A DNA stretch of 64,000 nucleotides from NCBI GenBank assembly GCA_015065265.1, contig SVQQ01000001.1:5544-69543 (forward strand), given 5' to 3'. How positions within the stretch are numbered: the first letter of the stretch is position 1; each line of letters begins with the position of its first letter. Of the stretch, positions 1,502-36,660 are shown piece by piece. The translations under genes were made by a program, and so were the position numbers. The DNA is from Oscillospiraceae bacterium (GTDB lineage: Bacteria > Bacillota > Clostridia > Oscillospirales > SIG627). Under the pieces are notes generated by a model, which saw nothing but the letters and a program-made list of their open reading frames with translations, was not told the origin of the DNA and did no database searches.

Positions 1502-3763
1502 ATGTCTATTTCAGTGGTATATCCCGAAAGGGCGCATACGGCGTATAAGATTGCGGCAGAGGAGTTCGTCTCTTTGGCAAAAGAAGTTTCTACTCAAACT
1601 CTCACCCTTGTTTCAGACCACGAGGAACTTCCTTCCGACACTTCGTCTGTGGTAGTTATCGGTGCCGATTCCGTGAACAGCGTTTGTGCAAACCTCTATC
1701 TTAAAAGAAAAATCGGTGACTTCGGGATAAGATATAACACAGAAGACTATCGCGTTTATACAAAGAATATCGATGGGCTGGACTATCTTTTTATCGCGGG
1801 CGGAAGACCGAGAGCCACCTTGTATGCTATTTACCGCTATTTTGAGAAGTTTTGCGGCTGCCGTTGGTTCTGGGACGGAGACCGCATAACGAAGGTAAAA
1901 GAACTTCCCTTGACAAATATCGACCTTACCGAATCTCCTCGCTTTGAGTACAGAGGACTCAGATACTTTGCCCACCGCAGTCTTCACCGCTTCCAAGCGG
2001 AGCATTGGAGTCTTGAGGATTGGCAAAAAGAAATTGACTGGATGCTCAAAAAACGTCTCAATATGTTTATGCTTCGCATAGGCCTTGACGATATTTTCCA
2101 GAAGGCGTTTCCCGACGTGGTCGATTACCCCAAACTTAACGAGCCTTTACCCGAGGCAGGTATCGAGCATCACGACAGAAACCTGTTCTGGTCCCTTGAA
2201 TACCGCGGAGAACTTCGAAAGAAACTTCTTGCCTACGCCTTTGAACGTGACCTTATGCACCCCGAAGATTGCGGAACGGTTACCCATTGGTATTCACGTA
2301 CCCCCAAGTCCTTCCTTGAAAAAGTCAACCCCAAACTTTTGCACAGTACAAAATATAACGGCGAACTGACGGGGCAGACCTGGGACGTATTCGACGACAA
2401 TAACCTTGAAAATTACTTCAAACTCACCGAAACACATATCAAAGAATACGGAAAGGCGGAACTTTTTCACACCATAGGTCTTGCAGAGCGCAACTTCTCG
2501 GAAGACAGGGAAGAGAATATGCGACTCAAGATGTACGTGTACAGACGAATTGCATCCTTCTTGAAGGAAAAGCATCCTCAATCCAAACTCTTTATCGCAA
2601 GTTGGGACCTCTGGATGTTCTACACCCCCGAAGAGATACAGAGACTGCTCGGCGAACTTGACCCTTCGCAGTCGATTATTCTCGACTATACCTCGGACAC
2701 GGTGAGCAGCCGAAACTTCAAGAGTTGGGACATTGTAGGAAACTACCCTTGGGTATTCGGAATGTTTGGCGGATATGAGCCCGACAATGAATTCAGAGGT
2801 TTTTACGAATTAACAAACGAGCGTATTAAGATTGCAAAGGAAGACCCCATGTGTAAGGGCGTAATCCTTTGGCCCGAACTTTCTCACGGGGACACCTTGA
2901 TGACAGAGTATCTTGCCCGAAACGCGTGGGAAAAAGAGACTCTTTCTGTTGAAGAGACGGTGGATAACTACTGTTTCGACCGTTACCCCGAGGAGATGAG
3001 AGGGAAGATGCGAGAGATCTGGCGTGACTTTATGCCCATCGTACAGATGCGCTCGTGGAGCCCTACCGACAGCGTTACAATGTTCTGGGGACAGAACACT
3101 TTCACCTGGATGATAGAACGAGCTTCCTTCGAGGATAAGCCCTACCCCTATTACGGAAGAAGTCCGGAAGATGCGAGAACTTGTCAGAAAGAGGCAGTTC
3201 GCGTCTTAAAGGCGCTCTCGGAGATTGAGACAGATGACGAAATGCTTCGCCGTGACGTTTTCGATATTGCAAGAACTGTTATGGCAAGATATATAGACTG
3301 TGGAATTCGTCTTGCGGAATTACAGTATTTTAGCAAGGATGCGAAAATGACAGAGACTATGGACAAGACCGTCGATCTTATGACATCCCTTTCCAACCTT
3401 CTGTCAGGCCACAAGGACTTCTCACTCTTTGACTCTCTTGAGAAGATGAGAGCGGTGACCGAAACCAAGCGTGATTTTGAAATCACTCTCAAGCATAATG
3501 CCGAAGGCTATTACTGCCGTTCGTTTATTGCGGAAAATGCAAAATATCTCTATCTTCCCGAAATGAATATTATTTTTGACGAAGTCAAGAGAGCCTTTAA
3601 CAGCGGTAAAGAAATAGACAGAGAGAAGATAAACAGTGAGTTTAATAAAAACCGCGAACGCTACTTCAATACCCCCCTTCGTGATATGGCGTTTAACTGC
3701 GCGGACTTGAAAGAAGTCTTGAAGAGAGCGGCAGAAACGATTGACGAAATTAAATTTAATTAG
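1502..3763 (+). CDS. GH89-like alpha-N-acetylglucosaminidase (distant NAGLU homologue)
   Basis: ATG 1502 (MSISVVYPE) has AGGGAAG upstream; the track start at 1397 overlaps the previous gene. The blocks WQKEIDWM, HTIGLAERNF (cf. FNEM), PWVFGMFGGYEPDN (cf. HNFGGNHG) and ILWPELSHGD (cf. MAPEGISQNE) follow the NAGLU catalytic-domain order. Confidence 0.6.
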   Translation: MSISVVYPERAHTAYKIAAEEFVSLAKEVSTQTLTLVSDHEELPSDTSSVVVIGADSVNSVCANLYLKRKIGDFGIRYNTEDYRVYTKNIDGLDYLFIAGGRPRATLYAIYRYFEKFCGCRWFWDGDRITKVKELPLTNIDLTESPRFEYRGLRYFAHRSLHRFQAEHWSLEDWQKEIDWMLKKRLNMFMLRIGLDDIFQKAFPDVVDYPKLNEPLPEAGIEHHDRNLFWSLEYRGELRKKLLAYAFERDLMHPEDCGTVTHWYSRTPKSFLEKVNPKLLHSTKYNGELTGQTWDVFDDNNLENYFKLTETHIKEYGKAELFHTIGLAERNFSEDREENMRLKMYVYRRIASFLKEKHPQSKLFIASWDLWMFYTPEEIQRLLGELDPSQSIILDYTSDTVSSRNFKSWDIVGNYPWVFGMFGGYEPDNEFRGFYELTNERIKIAKEDPMCKGVILWPELSHGDTLMTEYLARNAWEKETLSVEETVDNYCFDRYPEEMRGKMREIWRDFMPIVQMRSWSPTDSVTMFWGQNTFTWMIERASFEDKPYPYYGRSPEDARTCQKEAVRVLKALSEIETDDEMLRRDVFDIARTVMARYIDCGIRLAELQYFSKDAKMTETMDKTVDLMTSLSNLLSGHKDFSLFDSLEKMRAVTETKRDFEITLKHNAEGYYCRSFIAENAKYLYLPEMNIIFDEVKRAFNSGKEIDREKINSEFNKNRERYFNTPLRDMAFNCADLKEVLKRAAETIDEIKFN

Positions 3764-4921: not shown

Positions 4922-6199
4922 ATGAAGCAGTTATCTCTTATAGTTATCGGTGGCGGGGACCGAGGAAGCAGTTATCTAAAAACCTTGCAGGTAACCCCCG
5001 AAAAGTTTAAACTTGTGGCAATTGCCGAGCCTGTAAAAGAAAAAAGAGACCACCTCAGAGATTTATATAACGTACCCGAGGAAATGTGTTTTGAAAGTTG
5101 GGAAGACCTGCTCTCCCTTGACAAAATCGCAGACGTCGCCCTCATTTGCACACAGGACAAGATGCACTTTGCTCCTGCTATGAAGGCTATCGAAAAGAAG
5201 TATGACCTACTTCTCGAAAAACCTATTGCCCCCACTCCCGAAGAGTGCTTTAAAATCTCAGAATATGCAAAAGAGCAGGGAGTAAAGGTGCTGGTTTGCC
5301 ACGTTCTGAGATACACCCCTTTCTATAAGGTGATAAAAGAGTTCATTGAAGAGGGGAATCTCGGCGAAGTTATAAACGTTGTACATACGGAAGGTGTTGG
5401 CAACGTACATATGAGCCATAGTTTCGTCAGAGGAAACTGGCGAAACACAGCGGAATCTGCCCCAATGATACTTGCAAAATGCTGTCACGACACAGATATG
5501 CTTCAATGGATTATGAAAGAGCCTTGCACTAAGGTACATTCCTTTGGTACTCGCGCATATTTCCGCAGTGAAAATGCCCCCGAAGGCGCTCCCAAGCGTT
5601 GTACCGACGGTTGTCCTCACAAGGACACTTGCTTCTACTATGCCCCCAACGTTTATAAAATTGACACCGCCGAAGTTCAACACTTCAGAGCCATTGCGGC
5701 AAACAAATTCAACCCCACCGACGAAGAGGTTGACGAAGTACTTAAAACGTCTCCCTACGGAAGATGTGTTTACTACTGCGACAACGACGTAGTTGACCAT
5801 CAGGTAGTAAGTATGCAGTTTGGCGAAAACAAACACGTAACCCTCACTATGTCCGCCTTTAATAAAGGTGGCAGAACTTCACATATTATGGGAACAAAAG
5901 GCGAACTTCGTGCCAATATGGAAGGTCAGGTTATGGAGTTTTACGACTATGCCACAAGAGAAACCACTCAGGTGTACCACCCCGAAAAAACCCTCGACTA
6001 TACTATTGCGGGAGGTCACGCAGGTGGCGACTTTGGAATAATGCAGGACCTTTACGACTACATTGTCCTTGACAAACCCTCAATTTCTATTTCAGACGTA
6101 TCCGCGTCCTGTCTTGCACACCTTATCTGCTTTGCGGCAGAGGAATCAAGACTGACTGACAAGGTTATTGATATGAAAGAGTATATAAAGACTTTATAA
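4922..6199 (+). CDS. Gfo/Idh/MocA family NAD(P)-dependent oxidoreductase
   Basis: ATG 4922 follows TAGGAG; the track start at 4904 is a GTG upstream of that RBS. The N-terminal Rossmann motif is LIVIGGGDRGSSY, with EKP and CHVLRY blocks. A Cys-rich insert reads CTDGCPHKDTC. Confidence 0.8.
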   Translation: MKQLSLIVIGGGDRGSSYLKTLQVTPEKFKLVAIAEPVKEKRDHLRDLYNVPEEMCFESWEDLLSLDKIADVALICTQDKMHFAPAMKAIEKKYDLLLEKPIAPTPEECFKISEYAKEQGVKVLVCHVLRYTPFYKVIKEFIEEGNLGEVINVVHTEGVGNVHMSHSFVRGNWRNTAESAPMILAKCCHDTDMLQWIMKEPCTKVHSFGTRAYFRSENAPEGAPKRCTDGCPHKDTCFYYAPNVYKIDTAEVQHFRAIAANKFNPTDEEVDEVLKTSPYGRCVYYCDNDVVDHQVVSMQFGENKHVTLTMSAFNKGGRTSHIMGTKGELRANMEGQVMEFYDYATRETTQVYHPEKTLDYTIAGGHAGGDFGIMQDLYDYIVLDKPSISISDVSASCLAHLICFAAEESRLTDKVIDMKEYIKTL

Positions 6200-15756: not shown

Positions 15757-16529
15757 CAGTTTTGTCCTTCGCTTTTCTTTGCTTTTTGTCCTATTTTGTT
15801 TTCAGTACGGTTCAAGAGTCTCTTTATGTTTTCTTTGTGCATAACGATTACGATAACTGAGATAAGTATAGAAATAACGGTGGCCAGAAATCCTTTGTCA
15901 GAGTTAAAGGCGTTAAGCAACATAGGGTAGAAGAAAGCGCAGATGACCGAGCCCAGAGATATGTACTTTGAGGTTGCAACAATAGACACGAAAATTACCA
16001 CAAGAATGAGGAAAACTACGGGATTAAGGCAGAGAATGGAAATTGCGGAAACCACAACTCCTTTTCCGCCCTTGAATTTGTAGTAAATGGGGAATACGTG
16101 GCCGAGTATCGCGAAAAGAGCCGCAATATAGGCGCCCCCCTCACCCATTAAGAGCATCGAGAGGATTACGGAAAAAGCCGCCTTCAATCCGTCGAAAATA
16201 AAGGTGATAACACCCCATTTTCTTCCGTAGGTCCGCACCATATTGGTAGCCCCTGCATTTCCGCTTCCGTATTTTCTTATATCCTCTTTAAAGAAGATTT
16301 TTGAAAAGATTACAGCAAAGTTCAAACTTCCTATAAGGTAAGCGAAAACTCCACACAAAAGCAGGGCAACTATTGCCCAGACACCCTTGTCTGTTTCAAG
16401 AAGTTTTAAAAGTCTTGTGTCGTAACTGAGAGGAATGGTGTTCCCGTCAATTTTAATTGCGGGTAGAATAGTGTCTCCACAAAGTTTTGTGAAGAGATAA
16501 CCGAATTTTGAAAGTTCTCCGAAGGTCAT
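15756..16529 (-). CDS. plsY: glycerol-3-phosphate acyltransferase PlsY with an N-terminal extension of about 55 aa
   Basis: GSGNAGATN and FKGGKGV motifs. The ATG overlaps the der stop (ATGA), and the stop overlaps the ispE start (TGATG). Confidence 0.85.
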   Translation of the reverse strand: MTFGELSKFGYLFTKLCGDTILPAIKIDGNTIPLSYDTRLLKLLETDKGVWAIVALLLCGVFAYLIGSLNFAVIFSKIFFKEDIRKYGSGNAGATNMVRTYGRKWGVITFIFDGLKAAFSVILSMLLMGEGGAYIAALFAILGHVFPIYYKFKGGKGVVVSAISILCLNPVVFLILVVIFVSIVATSKYISLGSVICAFFYPMLLNAFNSDKGFLATVISILISVIVIVMHKENIKRLLNRTENKIGQKAKKSEGQN

Positions 16530-20146: not shown

Positions 20147-21892
20147 TTATTTTTTCTTTTGAGCTTCAAGTTTTTCCTGTCTTGCCGCTTCTTCTTGTGC
20201 AAGAATTACAGCGTTAGACTCTTTGTAGTTTTTAAGTTTCGCATTCTTGAAGATTGTGTATCCGTAACCTGAAGTATCAAGTTTTGAAAGTTTCTTTGAC
20301 TTAAGATAAGAGTTAACGTTGAAGTGAAGGGGAGCAACGGGTGAAAGTTCAAGAAGCATTTCTTCTGCATCATGGAGAAGAGCAGTTCTTTCTTTTCTGT
20401 CTGTTGTAACAGATATCTTTTCGATAAGCTTGTTGTATTTTTCGTTGTCGAAGCCTGTTACGTGAGTTGCTGTTCTTTCTTCGCCTGTAATGTCAATTGC
20501 TTCACCGCTGAATTCCTTTGCGAAAGGAGCAAGGAAAGCGAAGGCATCGGGAGCAAGTCCCTGATAGTCGATACCGATAACGTCGAAGTCACCCTTGTAA
20601 AGTTTGTTGGTATAAGCCTTACCTGCACCTGATGAAAGGGTTACCTTGAAACCAAGTCCTTCCCAAACCTCTTTGGTATATTTTGCAATCTCAACGTCTG
20701 CTGTATCACGGAGAGTGTAGATATTGATTGTATAATCTGAGGGGGTAATTCCCGCTTTTTTAATAAGAGTTTTTGCTTCTTTGAGGTTGGCAGAAACAGA
20801 AATTAAGTCACCGCCTACTTTTCTGAACTCTTTACCTGCTTTTTTATCGTTTACACCATAGGTAACAAGACCTGTTGCAGGCTTTACACCAAGACCTGAA
20901 ATTTCAGCGATTTTCTCTCTGTCAAGAGCAAGGCTGAGTGCCTGTCTTACAAGAGAATTATCAAAAGGTGCCTTTGTTGTGTTGAAGAAATAAGAGTAAA
21001 CTGAGAGAAGGTCGGATGTTTCCATCTTCTTTTCGTTTGCCGCATAAGTTTCTTTTTCAAAAGCGCTTATGTAGTAGATTTCTCCGTTTTCAAAACGTTC
21101 CATCTGTTCTGCTGTGGTGAAGGTAAAGTCAATTGTGAGTTTATAGGGTTTTACAACCTTGTAAACTGCAGAGTCAGAACTCTTTTCTCTGTTATAAACT
21201 GCGTTTCTCTGGAAAGTCACGCTCTTGGTAGGGTCGAAGTTTTTAAGAGTGAAAGCACTGTTTGCCGAGAAATCGTCAAGAGATGCAGCCCAAGAATCTT
21301 CATTTCCTGCAACGTTGTCTTCACGACTGGCAACAAGTGCGGGACTTGATACTGCCTCAAGGAAAAGGTCAAGGTTGAAAGGGCCTTCAAACTCAATTTT
21401 TAAAAGCGAGTCGCTTTCGGCATATACGCCAAGGTCGTCGGCTGTAACGTCACCTGCTTTGTAAGCCTTAGCATTTTTAATTCCGTAAAGGAGACAAGCG
21501 GCAGGTGAACTTGTTTCGGGAGAGAGAATTCTTCTCCAAGCGTAAACGAAATCGTCTGCCTGAACGTACTTCTGGTCGTCCCAAGAAGTTTCCTTGAGTT
21601 CAAAGAAGAGCCAGTATTCACCTTTTTCTTCATCTATTTTGGTGTACCAGTCACTTGCCATACCTTTTTCTATCTTACCGTTTTCTTTAAGGACGGTAAG
21701 CCCTTCGTAAAGCAAGGTGGTGTTTTTAAAAACGTCTGCATCATACATCATAGGCACAGGGTCGTAGTTACTGATTTCCTCTGTGATGAATACAGGGATA
21801 ATCGCGCCTGTGTCGTCCTTGTCTGCCGCACAACCTGAAAGGGTGGCAACAAGCGTAAGACATACAATAATAATAGACACTATTTTCTTCAT
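20147..21892 (-). CDS. ABC transporter substrate-binding lipoprotein, family 5 (Opp/Dpp-like)
   Basis: Signal peptide with lipobox LSGC. The size (581 aa) and block pattern are typical of oligopeptide-binding proteins. No permease gene is adjacent. Confidence 0.75.
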   Translation of the reverse strand: MKKIVSIIIVCLTLVATLSGCAADKDDTGAIIPVFITEEISNYDPVPMMYDADVFKNTTLLYEGLTVLKENGKIEKGMASDWYTKIDEEKGEYWLFFELKETSWDDQKYVQADDFVYAWRRILSPETSSPAACLLYGIKNAKAYKAGDVTADDLGVYAESDSLLKIEFEGPFNLDLFLEAVSSPALVASREDNVAGNEDSWAASLDDFSANSAFTLKNFDPTKSVTFQRNAVYNREKSSDSAVYKVVKPYKLTIDFTFTTAEQMERFENGEIYYISAFEKETYAANEKKMETSDLLSVYSYFFNTTKAPFDNSLVRQALSLALDREKIAEISGLGVKPATGLVTYGVNDKKAGKEFRKVGGDLISVSANLKEAKTLIKKAGITPSDYTINIYTLRDTADVEIAKYTKEVWEGLGFKVTLSSGAGKAYTNKLYKGDFDVIGIDYQGLAPDAFAFLAPFAKEFSGEAIDITGEERTATHVTGFDNEKYNKLIEKISVTTDRKERTALLHDAEEMLLELSPVAPLHFNVNSYLKSKKLSKLDTSGYGYTIFKNAKLKNYKESNAVILAQEEAARQEKLEAQKKK

Positions 21893-32517: not shown

Positions 32518-33993
32518 ATGAAAAGAATTTTATCTTTAGTGCTTGTACTCGTAATGCTCTTTTCTGCAGTTGTAATGACCCTTACTTCTTGCGGTGAAGA
32601 CAAAAAACCTGCAGATGTCAAGCCGAATAATAATCAGAATGGCGGCGGAGAGTCCGAAGACAGCATCTATGCTGAACGTGAGGCAATCGACGACGAACTT
32701 CCCGAAAGAGATTATAAGGGAAGAACCTTCAGAATCGCTTCCCCCAGACCTACCGAAATTAAGGTAAGTGAAACCGCTATCAATAAGGGTAACCTTATCC
32801 TTGACGCGAAATATGACAGAAACCAGGCAGTTGAAAACAGATTTAACGTAAATGTTGAAGTTGTTTACGGTTCTACTGCTACCTCAGAAGTTAACACCTA
32901 CGTAGCAAAGACCATTCTTTCAGGTGTAGATGAATTCGACCTCTTCATCGGTCACCAGGGTTCAACAGGTGCGCTGGTACTTAAAAACCTTTTCACCAAC
33001 TGGTATGACATCGACTACGTTGACTTTGACAAACCTTGGTGGGCAGACTCATGTAAAGATGAACTTACATACGACGGAAAAGCAATTCTTGCAGTTTCCG
33101 ACCTCAACCATCAGGCTATTGAATGTACCTATGCAATGTTCTTCAACAAGAGCATGGCAGCATCCTATGAGCTTGGTAACCTTTATAACATAGCTCTTAA
33201 TGGCAACTGGACATACGACACATTCTACGGTATGATCAAGGACATCTGGGAAGACGACGGAGACGGCAAGAAGAACTCAAACGACACATTCGGATTTGTT
33301 ACCGACGGTGGCGACCAGACAACTCAGTGGCTCTACGCTTTTGAAAACCCCATTATGACAAAAGACGCAGACGGAGTTCCTCAGATATCTCTTAAGACAA
33401 GTAAGATAAACGATATCGTTAAGAAGATCTACGACCTTAACAACAATACAACAGGTTCGTATTTCCCCAAGGACGATGCTTGGACACGTAGTATGTTTAT
33501 TGAAGGCAAGGCAATGTTCATTATCGCAAGAATTGACTTTGCAGATACACCCGACCTTCGTAACTTTACAGACGATTACGGAATTCTTCCTATTCCCAAG
33601 TACGACGAAAACCAGCAATCTTACCACACAATGTCTTATGCTGAACAGACAGTACTTGCAGTACCCAAGACCGCAAAAGACCTTGAATTTGTAGGTATCA
33701 TCACAGAAGCACTTTCAGCAGAAAGTTACAAGAAGCTTACTCCTACCTTCTATGAAATCGCTCTTAAATCACGTTACCTTCGTGACGATGAGTCCAAAGA
33801 AGTTCTTGATATCATCATCGAAAACCGTGTATTCGACTTCGGTTACATCTATTCAGGAACAGGTTCATTCGGCTCTGTTCTCCATGACGTTGTTACAGCC
33901 GGTGGTAACTTTGAATCATACTACCAGCAGAAGAGTCGTATAGCCGGTATCCACTATGACAGAGTTATCAAGGCATTCGACAAATTAAGCTAA
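32518..33993 (+). CDS. extracellular solute-binding lipoprotein (sugar ABC-type, large LplA-like class), orphan
   Basis: AAGGAG RBS. Signal peptide with lipobox LTSC. The protein is 491 aa. The gene ends in TAA TAG TAA. Confidence 0.7.
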   Translation: MKRILSLVLVLVMLFSAVVMTLTSCGEDKKPADVKPNNNQNGGGESEDSIYAEREAIDDELPERDYKGRTFRIASPRPTEIKVSETAINKGNLILDAKYDRNQAVENRFNVNVEVVYGSTATSEVNTYVAKTILSGVDEFDLFIGHQGSTGALVLKNLFTNWYDIDYVDFDKPWWADSCKDELTYDGKAILAVSDLNHQAIECTYAMFFNKSMAASYELGNLYNIALNGNWTYDTFYGMIKDIWEDDGDGKKNSNDTFGFVTDGGDQTTQWLYAFENPIMTKDADGVPQISLKTSKINDIVKKIYDLNNNTTGSYFPKDDAWTRSMFIEGKAMFIIARIDFADTPDLRNFTDDYGILPIPKYDENQQSYHTMSYAEQTVLAVPKTAKDLEFVGIITEALSAESYKKLTPTFYEIALKSRYLRDDESKEVLDIIIENRVFDFGYIYSGTGSFGSVLHDVVTAGGNFESYYQQKSRIAGIHYDRVIKAFDKLS

Positions 33994-34012
33994 TAGTAAC
34001 GTTTATATCGTC

Positions 34013-34048
34013 TTTTTGGTTAAAACCGAAATGAAATGACATTATAAA
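34013..34048 (+). repeat. left 36-bp inverted repeat
   Basis: It is the exact reverse complement of 34875-34910. Similarity continues imperfectly through the adjacent hairpin, giving about 85 bp in total. Confidence 0.95.
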
Positions 34049-34056
34049 GATTAAAT

Positions 34057-34096
34057 AAAGCGTAGTCTATAAAAATAGGCTACGCTTTGTTTATTG
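34057..34096 (+). terminator. terminator hairpin serving the solute-binding protein gene
   Basis: AAAGCGTAGTCTAT-AAAA-ATAGGCTACGCTTT followed by GTTTATT. Confidence 0.6.
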
Positions 34097-34118
34097 TCTG
34101 TTCTATTGTACATAGTGT

Positions 34119-34478
34119 AAATGCAGAGTGCAGTCCGACTCGCTTTAGCCTCGCACACTGCTCGGCTACGCTCCCTGTATGGCTTGAATTTTTGTAGGCT
34201 CCGCTAATCGCTACACCACAAAAATCCCCCGCTCAAATGCAGAGTGCAGTCCGACTCGCTTTAGCCTCGCACACTGCTCGGCTACGCTCCCTGTATGGCT
34301 TGAATTTTTGTAGGCTCCGCTAATCGCTACACCACAAAAATCCCCCGCTCAAATGCAGAATGCTGTCCGACTCGCTTTAGCCTCGCACACTGCTCGGCTA
34401 CGCTCCCTGTATGGCTTGAATTTTTGTAGGCTCCGCTAATCGCTACACCACAAAAATCCCCCGCTCAAATGCAAAATG
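34119..34478 (+). repeat. 116-bp tandem repeat, 3 full copies plus a 12-nt start of a fourth
   Basis: The copies are 34119-34234, 34235-34350 (identical to the first) and 34351-34466 (2 substitutions). The period is not a multiple of 3. Confidence 0.95.
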
Positions 34479-34821
34479 CAGAATTAAGGAACAAATGCTT
34501 CGCATTTGAGTTGATTTTATTATAAGTTTAGCGGATTTTCCGCTAAACGTATAAAAAACTAACACTTTTAAAAAAGAAATTTAGTCTATATACAAGGACT
34601 AAACCCAATTTTTTCTAATACTTGTGTCTTTCACTTTTCATTGTAAAAACTTTAGTCTATTGCTCTAAAAATCATAGAATTTTTGAGGAAAAATTCGCAA
34701 TCCCGAAGCCGTCGGCGTACTTATGTACGGCAGTGCGAGGGAGGGCGAAAGAAATGAAACTCAAATAATTCAAAAGAAGTTCTGTAGAACTTCTTACATT
34801 AGAAGAATTGTAAAATGGTAC

Positions 34822-34865
34822 AAAAGAATAAATAAAGCATAGTCTATTTTCATAGACTATGCTTT
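34822..34865 (-). terminator. terminator hairpin serving the Na/Pi cotransporter gene
   Basis: On the minus strand: AAAGCATAGTCTAT-GAAA-ATAGACTATGCTTT followed by ATTTATTCTTTT. Confidence 0.6.
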
Positions 34866-34874
34866 ACTAAACTT

Positions 34875-34910
34875 TTTATAATGTCATTTCATTTCGGTTT
34901 TAACCAAAAA
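34875..34910 (-). repeat. right 36-bp inverted repeat
   Basis: It is the exact reverse complement of 34013-34048. It ends 7 nt from the stop codon of the Na/Pi gene. Confidence 0.95.
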
Positions 34911-34917
34911 TTCAATT

Positions 34918-36660
34918 TCACTTAAGCTGGAATTTGTCGTGCCATGCTGCACAAAGAGTAGCAAAATTTCCGTCAGGCTGAGTTTTCACCTCATGCAGAT
35001 ACTCGTGAGTATCAAAAGTTCCGTGGGCTGCTTCAATCATAGCAACCGCAATATTGGAGCAGTGGTCGGAAATACGCTCACAGTTAGTTAAAAGGTCGGT
35101 GAGCACAAAGCCCAGTTCAATGGTACAACTGCCTTTTTGAAGACGTGTAATGTGCCTTGTTCTGATTTCGGTAACTATGGTGTCTATAACCTGTTCAAGA
35201 GGTTCGACGGTCTTTGCAAGATTTATATCCTGCTCTACGAAGGCACGAACGGTAATATTCAGAATTTCGCTAACCGCTTGTGCAACGGTAGTAAGTTCGC
35301 CTCTCGCTTCATGGGAGAAGGAAATCTGTTTATCAAACATTTCACGGGAGACACCAACAAGGTTGTCGGCGTGGTCACCAATTCTTTCAAGGTCGGTTAT
35401 AACGTGAAGAAGCATAGAAACGTTTTTGGAGTCTGCGTCAGAAAGTTGACACTTTGAAAGTTTTACAAGGTAAGTTCCGAGTTTATCTTCATAGGAGTCA
35501 AGAACCCCTTCCGACTCGGTAATTTCAGAAGCCTTCTTTTCATCATACTTATTTAATAGTTCAAGAGAAGCGAAAACCGAAGCTTTGGCAATTTCCGCCA
35601 TATCCTTTGTAGTTTCAAGTGCCTTACCTGCCGCAACAGAGGGAAGAGTGAGCAAACGCTCGTCCAGAAGTTCGGATTGACTTTTACCTTCCTTGATTAT
35701 CTTGCAAGACGCCTTTTCCAAGAGTTTTGCAAAGGGGAAAAGAAGTGCGGTTGTGCACACGTTGAATATTGAATGAATTACAGCAATACTAAATGGGTCA
35801 ATAGGTGAATTTACAAAAGGAATATTTACAAAAGCCACCACAAGCGACCAGATAGCGAGGAACACCAGTGTGCCGATACAGTTAAATAGCACGTGAACTA
35901 TAGCAACGCGTCTTGCGTTTTTGTTAGCGCCGATAGAAGAGAGAAAAGCGGTAACACAAGTACCTATATTCTGACCCATAATAATGGGGATAGCGGAAGC
36001 GAAGGTAATTCCGCCTGTCATTGAAAGCGCCTGTAAAACACCCACAGATGCAGAAGAAGATTGAATGATAGCGGTGAATATTGCACCTACTAGCACACCG
36101 AGAACGGGGTTAGAGAAAAGAGTGAGAATGCTTGTAAATTGAGAATTTGTGGCAAGAGGTTCAACTGCAGTGGACATAAAGTCCATACCGTACATCAGCA
36201 CTGCAAAGCCAACGAATATTGAACCTACGTCCTTCTTTACCTGCTTTTTCGATATCATTATCATAAGAATACCGATAAAAGCAACCACAGGTGAGAAGGA
36301 TTCAGGCTTCAGAAGCCTCATAAAAAGGGAATCACTTTCAATTCCCGTAAGGCTAAGTAGCCAAGCGGTAACGGTTGTTCCTATATTTGAGCCCATAATT
36401 ATGTATATGGACTGACCGAGTTTCATAACGCCTGAGTTTACAAGACCTACAAGCATAACGGTCATAGCAGAGGAAGACTGAATTATCGCGGTAATTCCCA
36501 TACCTAAAACGAGACTTTTAAGAGGATTTGACGTGAGTTTTTCAAGTATTCGTTCAATCTTTCCACCCGCAACTTTTTCAAGTCCGTCAGAAAGCACGTT
36601 CATTCCGAAAAGGAATAAAGCAAGTCCGCCCAAAAGTCCGATTATTGAAAAAATATCCAT
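34918..36660 (-). CDS. Na+/phosphate cotransporter family protein with C-terminal PhoU-like domains
   Basis: 580 aa. The N-terminal membrane half has duplicated QSSSA(M/S) motifs. The C-terminal soluble half has two PhoU-like repeats (DLERIGDHADN, NCERISDHCSN). Confidence 0.8.
   Translation of the reverse strand: MDIFSIIGLLGGLALFLFGMNVLSDGLEKVAGGKIERILEKLTSNPLKSLVLGMGITAIIQSSSAMTVMLVGLVNSGVMKLGQSIYIIMGSNIGTTVTAWLLSLTGIESDSLFMRLLKPESFSPVVAFIGILMIMISKKQVKKDVGSIFVGFAVLMYGMDFMSTAVEPLATNSQFTSILTLFSNPVLGVLVGAIFTAIIQSSSASVGVLQALSMTGGITFASAIPIIMGQNIGTCVTAFLSSIGANKNARRVAIVHVLFNCIGTLVFLAIWSLVVAFVNIPFVNSPIDPFSIAVIHSIFNVCTTALLFPFAKLLEKASCKIIKEGKSQSELLDERLLTLPSVAAGKALETTKDMAEIAKASVFASLELLNKYDEKKASEITESEGVLDSYEDKLGTYLVKLSKCQLSDADSKNVSMLLHVITDLERIGDHADNLVGVSREMFDKQISFSHEARGELTTVAQAVSEILNITVRAFVEQDINLAKTVEPLEQVIDTIVTEIRTRHITRLQKGSCTIELGFVLTDLLTNCERISDHCSNIAVAMIEAAHGTFDTHEYLHEVKTQPDGNFATLCAAWHDKFQLK

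Follow-up and report, generated by a model that had tools for sequence, protein, structure and literature searches.

A candidate mosaic of dispersed hairpin-forming repeats between two convergent genes of an uncultured Oscillospiraceae bacterium

Positions 34013–34910 of a 64,000-nt stretch of contig SVQQ01000001.1 (the whole stretch analyzed, hereafter the 64-kb window, to which all coordinates without a contig label refer) form an 898-bp island that separates two convergent genes in an uncultured Oscillospiraceae bacterium of the ruminant gut. With moderate confidence, we read this island as a mosaic of short, non-coding, hairpin-forming and lineage-restricted dispersed repeat modules, the outer of which would give each of the convergent genes its terminator. 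The terminal inverted repeats would be two opposed copies of a single gene-3′-end module, consisting of a 36-mer and then a Rho-independent terminator hairpin; each copy would abut the stop codon of the gene whose transcript enters it, and the inverted repeat would exist because each gene is trailed by its own copy of the same module. The interior would comprise further modules of this family, namely a spacer, an array of AATGCAG heptads, a short hairpin (hp1), a central hairpin (C) and a segment X, and a private 101-nt insert would have given rise to a strain-variable 116-bp minisatellite through slippage between flanking 15-nt heptad repeats. Recombination, gene conversion or another transposition route may have spread or homogenized the copies, with the perfect identity of the two 36-mers representing a possible recent conversion tract.

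This reading draws mainly on the recurrence of the parts. About half of the island (the arms and spacer, the heptad array with two hairpins, and 136 nt from the right interior) recurs at a second locus, locus B (contigs L105/L106). There, a 566-bp spacer separates a 1009-aa gene from a convergent gene with an RNHCP domain, past which lie gyrA and gyrB. The arm, spacer, heptad–hp1, C and X modules were common to both loci, in differing order and orientation; non-coding hairpin modules present at several intergenic loci in varying combinations are what characterizes the BOX, SPRITE and BIME repeats. By arithmetic, sequence with paralogs elsewhere accounts for about half of the island and the minisatellite for 39%, and the remainder includes a nested-hairpin module.

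Opposed arms and predicted terminators

The outer parts of the island, read on the strand of the adjacent gene, were as follows.

34013–34048, plus strand: left 36-mer, the outer end of the left arm, containing a 7-bp mini-hairpin (UUUUGGU/ACCGAAA).
34052–34093, plus strand: left-arm terminator-like hairpin with the T-tail TTGTCTGTTC, the predicted terminator of the 491-aa gene on the left.
34809–34910, minus strand: right arm, comprising the 36-mer at 34875–34910 and a terminator-like hairpin at 34868–34831.
34868–34831, minus strand: right-arm terminator-like hairpin with a T-tail, the predicted terminator of the Na/Pi cotransporter gene on the right.

A preliminary description of this DNA had reported perfect 36-bp inverted repeats placed 19 and 7 nt after the flanking stop codons, around an interior lacking any open reading frame (ORF) of 60 aa or more and lacking a target-site duplication, and each of these points held. 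The perfect inverted repeat joins 34013–34048 to 34875–34910 across an inter-arm distance of 826 nt, and the 36-mer matched the window twice, compared with 0.00 matches expected from 100 shuffles. The stop-to-repeat gaps follow from ORF coordinates (the left ORF ends at 33993 and the right stop codon occupies 34918–34920), and the longest ORF within the island was 48 aa. The flanks, ending in TATATCGTC on the left and beginning with TTCAATTTC on the right, contained no direct repeat of 2–10 nt, boundary shifts across T/A runs included. A precise empty site for the whole 898-bp unit would read TATATCGTC joined directly to TTCAATTT. The same description had let the similarity extend imperfectly to about 85 bp per arm; the imperfect extension was confirmed, whereas its length was greater, with 34013–34112 and 34809–34910 (about 100 nt per arm) matching at 85.3% over 102 columns. 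Identity within the arms was uneven: all 36 positions of the 36-mer agreed, compared with 51/66 (77%, i.e., 23% differing) in the remainder.

Both arm hairpins were terminator-scan matches in the sense of the adjacent gene, with fold z-scores of −5.9 (left) and −7.9 (right). Across the three available versions of the hairpin, 3 of the 14 stem pairs had changed on both sides and 97.6% of cells were still paired, in a comparison of n = 3 sequences for which 47/500 shuffles attained the observed score. The arm hairpins thus most likely serve, as predicted elements, as the terminators of the two convergent genes. The earlier statement that both genes terminate inside the element agrees with the hairpins and T-tails in the right sense, the transcript ends themselves being predictions.

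The arms also contain promoter-like sites. TAGACT-17/18-TATAAT (10/12 matches) faces outward in both arms and is intact in the locus-B copy; in the left arm its TATAAT lies on the opposite strand of the 36-mer. Overall, 5 promoter-like matches were found compared with 2.4 expected, such matches being common in AT-rich DNA. The minus-strand promoter proposed earlier in the interior (TTTAGC-17-TATAAT) was present as a sequence, but its −35 box agrees at only 3/6 positions and the promoter scan did not list it. An antisense mini-ORF (14 or 24 aa) starting at an ATG inside the 36-mer was dropped because that ATG overlaps the −10 box and would lie upstream of any transcription start. A paper on terminator–promoter coupling was set aside, as it concerns tandem genes.

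Modules shared with a second locus

The repeat unit R and the interior modules were delimited as follows.

34009–34132, plus strand: outer part of repeat unit R (36-mer, terminator, spacer and first AATGCAG heptads), 84% identical to the inverted locus-B copy (L105 9627–9504).
34119–34481, plus strand: 116-bp minisatellite (period 116, 3.1 copies, 98% matches), a GC-rich 101-nt insert plus a 15-nt heptad duplication.
34467–34512, plus strand: heptad array (AATGCAA AATGCAG AATTAAG) with the REP-like hairpin hp1 (CAAATGC-TTC-GCATTTG).
34516–34558, no strand assigned: central hairpin C, GTTTAGCGGA-TTT-TCCGCTAAAC, with a stem that is invariant in all copies and a loop of TTT or AAA.
34559–34694, plus strand: segment X of the right interior; together with the heptads, hp1 and C it matches locus B (L105 9117–9345) at 81.7% over 229 nt.
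34685–34770, plus strand: nested hairpin module with the core GTCGGCGTAC-N4-GTACGGCAG.

Locus B was reached by a biased route, namely by tracing a foreign gene of the contig L010, described below, to its usual context. It carries a third arm copy, in which L105 9540–9621 matches window 34827–34908 at 92.7% over 82 nt; the alignment of this copy with the left arm and spacer extends over 125 nt, and its 36-mer retains 33/36 matches. Its spacer holds three heptad–hp1–C copies in both orientations, the inverted one matching over 88 nt at 89.8%. Without the 101-nt insert, the left side of the island and the right side of locus B, the latter taken in inverted orientation, align along unit R (36-mer, terminator, spacer, heptads, hp1 and C) for about 250 nt, which yields an exact empty site for the insert at locus B. 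The outer boundaries of the three arm copies fall within about 5 nt of one another, each at a gene 3′ end. An inverted terminator duplication confined to this one site was rejected once locus B had been found.

At locus B, the final 8 codons of the RNHCP gene and its stop fall within the 36-mer (...SLVKTEMK and stop, L105 9597–9625). As the RNHCP Pfam domain ends at residue 96/114, the repeat-encoded C-terminus lies beyond the domain. On sequence grounds, the repeat may have supplied this C-terminus or may derive from it.

We infer that locus B lies in the same genome as the island, because its tetranucleotide correlation with the window is 0.984 (relatives, ≤0.89), genes of the two regions co-occur in samples ERZ27248446 and ERZ27248306, and L010 (also L107) physically links them. 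Copy counts cover about 95 kb of this organism's genome and amount to two loci, one of them via the biased route; over these loci, the arm module was counted 3 times and the interior modules 2–4 times.

The interior modules differ in how they vary. The heptad–hp1 module has three more copies at locus B, two in the diverged lineage L013 and related ones in L021 (Clostridia bacterium RGIG4571), the closest relative available, with 74% identity at the Na/Pi protein. Its hp1 stem occurs as CAAATGC/GCATTTG or GATTTGC/GCAAATC, with 3/7 pairs changed on both sides. Hairpin C keeps a constant 10-bp stem, but its loop, read against the neighboring heptad module, is TTT in some copies and AAA in others (34516–34558; L105 9165–9197 and 9418–9446), which suggests that the loop flips by hairpin-mediated template switching. 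A further copy of the nested hairpin lies in a different convergent-gene spacer of this genome (L103, around 2740–2800), where the outer stem is different yet complementary; a look-alike was also seen in a different species (L096 1–60). The interior hairpins of the preliminary description were recovered at 34492–34508, 34526–34548 and 34579–34604, but the fourth, given as 34784–34805, is better placed at 34774–34795; its 116-bp tandem repeat was likewise recovered. A 39-aa ORF at 34723–34842 (plus strand), called by some pipelines, was seen only at this locus (16 contigs) and lacks a ribosome-binding site; it is probably spurious and not a gene.

That description had also offered a structured non-coding RNA locus, a reading that the hairpins alone favor. 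The 116-bp tandem unit folded no better than shuffles (z −0.4 and −1.2), and the right interior somewhat better than shuffles on the plus strand (z −3.8). Searching Rfam 15 with the island region returned only sub-threshold matches to terminator-like Enterococcus small RNAs (sRNAs; 28 bits compared with a 49-bit cut-off) and nothing at E ≤ 1, and tRNA-Glu was the sole match at gathering score in the whole window. Beyond the hairpins, the proposal found no support.

Beyond this organism the family thins out quickly. Across 1.4 Mb from about 75 related species, a profile hidden Markov model built from four arm copies re-found only the organism's own copies, and a heptad-module profile matched only this organism and, weakly, L021. 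There the module takes the form of an AATGCAG array, an AATTAAG(G) heptad and a hairpin, and would represent an older, related module. Such heptad and hairpin modules were seen beside terminators in L021 at 11790–11935, 21034–21100, 16050–16108 and 3140–3196, and the one directly downstream of its Na/Pi gene is an inverted pair with 49-nt arms that are 80% complementary. A loose heptad-array regular expression run over the same 1.4 Mb gave mostly noise (41 matches, compared with 27 in shuffles), L021 alone being convincing.

Exact scans speak only for other species: a 22-mer of the repeat core had 0 matches in the collections genome_contigs, metagenome_contigs and viral_contigs, and a 24-mer of the 116-bp unit had 0 in metagenome_contigs and viral_contigs. 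They are not evidence of a single copy, since the organism's own genome is apparently outside these collections; the nearest species in the GTDB-based genome_contigs has 74% identity at the Na/Pi protein, and the 22-mer occurs in L105 (JGI sample 3300024269), yet the metagenome_contigs scan returned nothing. A description of the island as a single locus, drawn from these scans, was withdrawn on both grounds. In addition, blastn of the island against plasmids and phages gave no match.

Strain variants and alternative explanations

Contigs carrying window proteins were drawn from JGI, ENA and Logan metagenome assemblies. Seven independent assemblies cross at least one arm, two at full length (JGI 3300022661 and ERZ27248314) and five as halves (ERZ27248351, 3300023371, 3300018495, ERZ27248306 and ERZ28594235), and several contigs break within the tandem array. 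Full-length ERZ27248314 (L009) is the same as the window save for one 116-bp unit instead of three, which may be an assembly collapse. The number of units was 3.1 in the window and JGI 3300022661 and 1.1 in both L009 and L013, and it fell to 0 in L010 as well as in the locus-B paralog; strain-variable head-to-tail units of this kind constitute a minisatellite, or variable-number tandem repeat.

All seven assemblies have the reference orientation, which bears on the earlier suggestion that the island is an invertible, phase-variable segment. Its inversion would call for a site-specific recombinase that works on the 36-bp repeats. Perfect inverted repeats around a promoter-containing, ORF-free segment would suit such a switch, and two short contigs end within the left repeat (L004 at 34035 and L014 at 34037). 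However, the orientation was constant in 7/7 assemblies, from which a minority orientation could escape, and no recombinase or integrase Pfam match was found among the substantial ORFs of the 64-kb window or the called genes to 10 kb beyond it, a range that a distant invertase would escape. Moreover, both adjacent genes face inward, so inversion would put no promoter upstream of a gene, and the outward promoter-like sites lie in the arms and would therefore be unchanged by it. The hix/gix sites of serine invertases, which read AAACC-NN-GGTTT, bear no resemblance to the GGTT-AA-AACC of the 36-mer. An invertible segment is thus very improbable, and the suggestion is unsupported.

The variant contigs show how the parts combine. 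In L013, which diverges by 3% of nucleotides in the lipoprotein coding sequence (CDS) to the left, the left arm is identical at 100/100 positions, and the interior holds one 116-bp unit with a variant stretch followed by the same heptads, hp1 and central hairpin, whereas the right half is different. This region of L013 is a long imperfect palindrome centered on GTTTAGCGGA-TTT-TCCGCTAAAC with its own version of the terminator, and no recognizable 36-mer was found for the right arm in the stretch before the contig end. In L010/L107 (ERZ27248306 k141_1156298, 143 kb), the right half of the island is joined at 34468 to the left side of locus B with its 1009-aa gene; the junction lies in a 67-nt stretch identical in both loci, and the right arm is present without the left. 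This contig is either a true recombinant between dispersed repeats or an assembly chimera, and no similar contig had been collapsed with it among the 24 contigs bearing the 1009-aa protein.

Because the parts of the island occur in different combinations in L013, locus B and L010, the 898 bp are probably not one discrete transposon. A single non-autonomous element of this size, that is, a transposable element of the miniature inverted-repeat type (MITE) with 36-bp terminal inverted repeats, inserted as a unit and mobilized in trans, would account for the perfect terminal repeats, the ORF-free interior and the recurrence of the arm at another locus with nearly the same outer boundary, and the compact palindromic form of L013 (about 350 bp plus one unit) could be its canonical version. 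Yet there is no target-site duplication, and the arms differ by 23% outside the 36-mer. The interior is not co-inherited with the arms, as L013 has another right half and L010 the right arm alone, and locus B carries a single arm, a different terminator occupying its opposite side. The gaps of 19 and 7 nt leave no room for older terminators outside an inserted element, no transposase domain was found in the 64-kb window, and 898 bp is large for a bacterial MITE. No second whole unit was seen in the roughly 95 kb examined, and the 116-bp repeat is private to the locus. We therefore regard a discrete MITE as quite unlikely. Among the three options of the preliminary description, its MITE-like element nevertheless comes closest, in that a dispersed, non-coding and non-autonomous-looking family was found but a single discrete element was not.

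A further explanation concerns the 36-mer itself, which might be kept identical by selection, either as a shared RNA element of the 3′ untranslated region (3′UTR), such as a regulator site or a 3′UTR-derived sRNA, or as the core of an outward antisense promoter. Convergent transcripts across an inverted repeat carry identical RNA sequence, with a layout here of mini-hairpin, A/U-rich single strand and terminator; the identity of the 36-mer stands out against the arm remainder, the left arm has not diverged (0/100) between lineages 3% apart in CDS, and the outward promoter-like site recurs in all three arm copies. Nevertheless, the locus-B 36-mer has 3 changes and is partly coding there, L013 lacks a recognizable right 36-mer in the stretch before its contig end, the excess of promoter-like matches is small (5 compared with 2.4), and no Rfam family matched. 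The upstream intergenic region also shows 0/101 divergence between the window and L013, so that zero divergence is not peculiar to the arm. Overall, we judge selection on the 36-mer to be unlikely.

Several points weigh against the mosaic of dispersed modules that we favor. It comes without a target-site duplication, a transposase or an empty site for a whole arm, and its mobility is putative. Just three arm copies at two loci support it, and the approximately 80 kb sampled without bias shows one locus. Locus B is placed in this genome by inference rather than proof, and genome-wide copy number rests on the approximately 95 kb, as the genome itself lies outside the searched collections. Termination at the arm hairpins is a prediction. 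Finally, agreement at 36/36 positions beside 51/66 in the arm remainder has a chance of about 1e-4 at that divergence, by arithmetic; conversion accounts for it only post hoc, and selection on the 36-mer is equally possible as a cause.

A bolder version of the same reading would make these modules an actively spreading, undescribed repeat family of uncultured ruminant-gut Oscillospiraceae. Mobilized by a hairpin-guided mechanism that leaves no target-site duplication (e.g., an HUH/RAYT-like enzyme), its members would settle at the 3′ ends of genes, contribute terminators there and, as in the RNHCP gene, occasionally the final codons with the stop, carry an outward promoter and provide homology for rearrangements such as the L010 junction. 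We consider this tentative and somewhat unlikely; no RAYT gene was found in the 64-kb window.

Genomic surroundings and known repeat families

The flanking genes were as follows.

32518–33993, plus strand: left flanking gene, encoding a 491-aa predicted lipoprotein whose signal peptide carries a cysteine (...LTSCGEDKK).
34918–36660, minus strand: right flanking gene, encoding a Na/Pi cotransporter with a PhoU domain, after which comes a PhoR/PhoB-like two-component pair.

The lipoprotein matched no Pfam or NCBIfam family and belongs to a multi-paralog family in Oscillospiraceae metagenome-assembled genomes (MAGs), and the Na/Pi protein has exactly the sequence of NCBI MBE6700299.1, which comes from the MAG of a Ruminococcaceae/Oscillospiraceae bacterium. 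The block uxaA–uxaB–phoB–phoR–Na/Pi is syntenic in the relatives L017, L018, L019 and L021; the gene beyond Na/Pi differs among three of them (L017–L019), being a lipoprotein homolog, a flavin reductase or a leucine-rich repeat protein. From gene order, the island would sit at a synteny breakpoint. Comparison with relatives, suggested earlier as a way of finding an empty site, showed spacers at the Na/Pi-downstream site that are unrelated to the island; L013, L009, L010 and locus B show the parts varying independently of one another.

Two other hairpin arrays were observed. At 13937–14880 of the window, a tRNA-Glu(CTC) is followed by four more copies of its 3′ end (ATTCCCGTACGGGTCACCA), each with a terminator-like hairpin after it, and then by a 250-bp tandem repeat (×1.9) that consists of strings of short hairpins separated by AATGAAG on the left and CTTCAT on the right; this region looks like a series of att-site remnants or a related hairpin-array repeat. 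In L017, a relative at 71% identity, short hairpins with tetraloop-like loops lie downstream of Na/Pi (5820–5990), spaced by GTGATGT to the left and by CATCAC to the right; they make up a mirror-symmetric array whose sequence family is a different one.

The small interspersed repeats of Proteobacteria and streptococci have been studied thoroughly. Gut Oscillospiraceae are known mainly from MAGs, and we found no description of such repeats in them in the literature searched. The preliminary description had called any of its options undescribed; this probably applies to the family but not to the kind of repeat, which is already known, and the island leaves current understanding of bacterial repeats unchanged. 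At least three genes appear to owe their terminators to this family, and one gene its C-terminal codons, which bears on the evolution of gene 3′ ends and 3′UTRs. Its repeats explain the recurrent contig breaks and a possibly chimeric or recombinant contig, a matter of importance for MAG quality, and the 116-bp minisatellite could act as a strain marker.

Among known systems, Correia and ERIC sequences share with the island the character of imperfect palindromic MITEs in transcribed intergenic regions. Correia elements have a TA duplication. Both kinds are discrete units of about 100–155 bp, whereas the island is a mosaic without a target-site duplication. Correia insertions can create functional promoters, and transcribed copies are cut by RNase III; ERIC may bring an RNase E cleavage site that destabilizes upstream transcripts (PMC3049150).

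The REP and BIME sequences of Proteobacteria are likewise short imperfect palindromes in alternating orientation that form mosaics in 3′UTRs and in the spacers of convergent genes. Depending on context, they terminate transcription and stabilize mRNA (bioRxiv 10.64898/2026.03.23.713779), and REPINs are two inverted REPs with a spacer between (PMC3337134). However, REPs are GC-rich sequences of 20–40 nt that number in the hundreds and are linked to a RAYT transposase, whereas the island modules are AT-rich and their half-unit is about 250 nt.

The BOX elements of Streptococcus pneumoniae (boxA–(boxB)n–boxC) differ from the island in having defined terminal inverted repeats, target-site duplications and more than 100 copies per genome, compared with no duplication and two loci seen here; the variable 116-bp unit of the island is private to one locus rather than a family module, and the sequences are not similar. 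The pneumococcal elements are modular and 67–637 bp long, and the repeats cluster and insert into one another (PMC3049150). The island resembles them as a non-coding, dispersed and modular sequence of highly variable size, with mutually complementary outer modules, an internal module of varying copy number, and clustering with and insertion by other repeats.

Compared with SPRITE, the island arm has an extra 36-nt segment ahead of the hairpin and runs on into spacer and heptad modules; its host belongs to a different Firmicutes order and the sequences are unrelated. SPRITE repeats are nonetheless terminator-like and enriched near CDS 3′ ends (PMC3049150). Like the island arm, they are AT-rich dispersed repeats built around a long terminator-like hairpin that ends in a U-rich tail, they too have no established target-site duplication, and they lie near CDS 3′ ends, where co-option as terminators has been proposed (PMC3049150).

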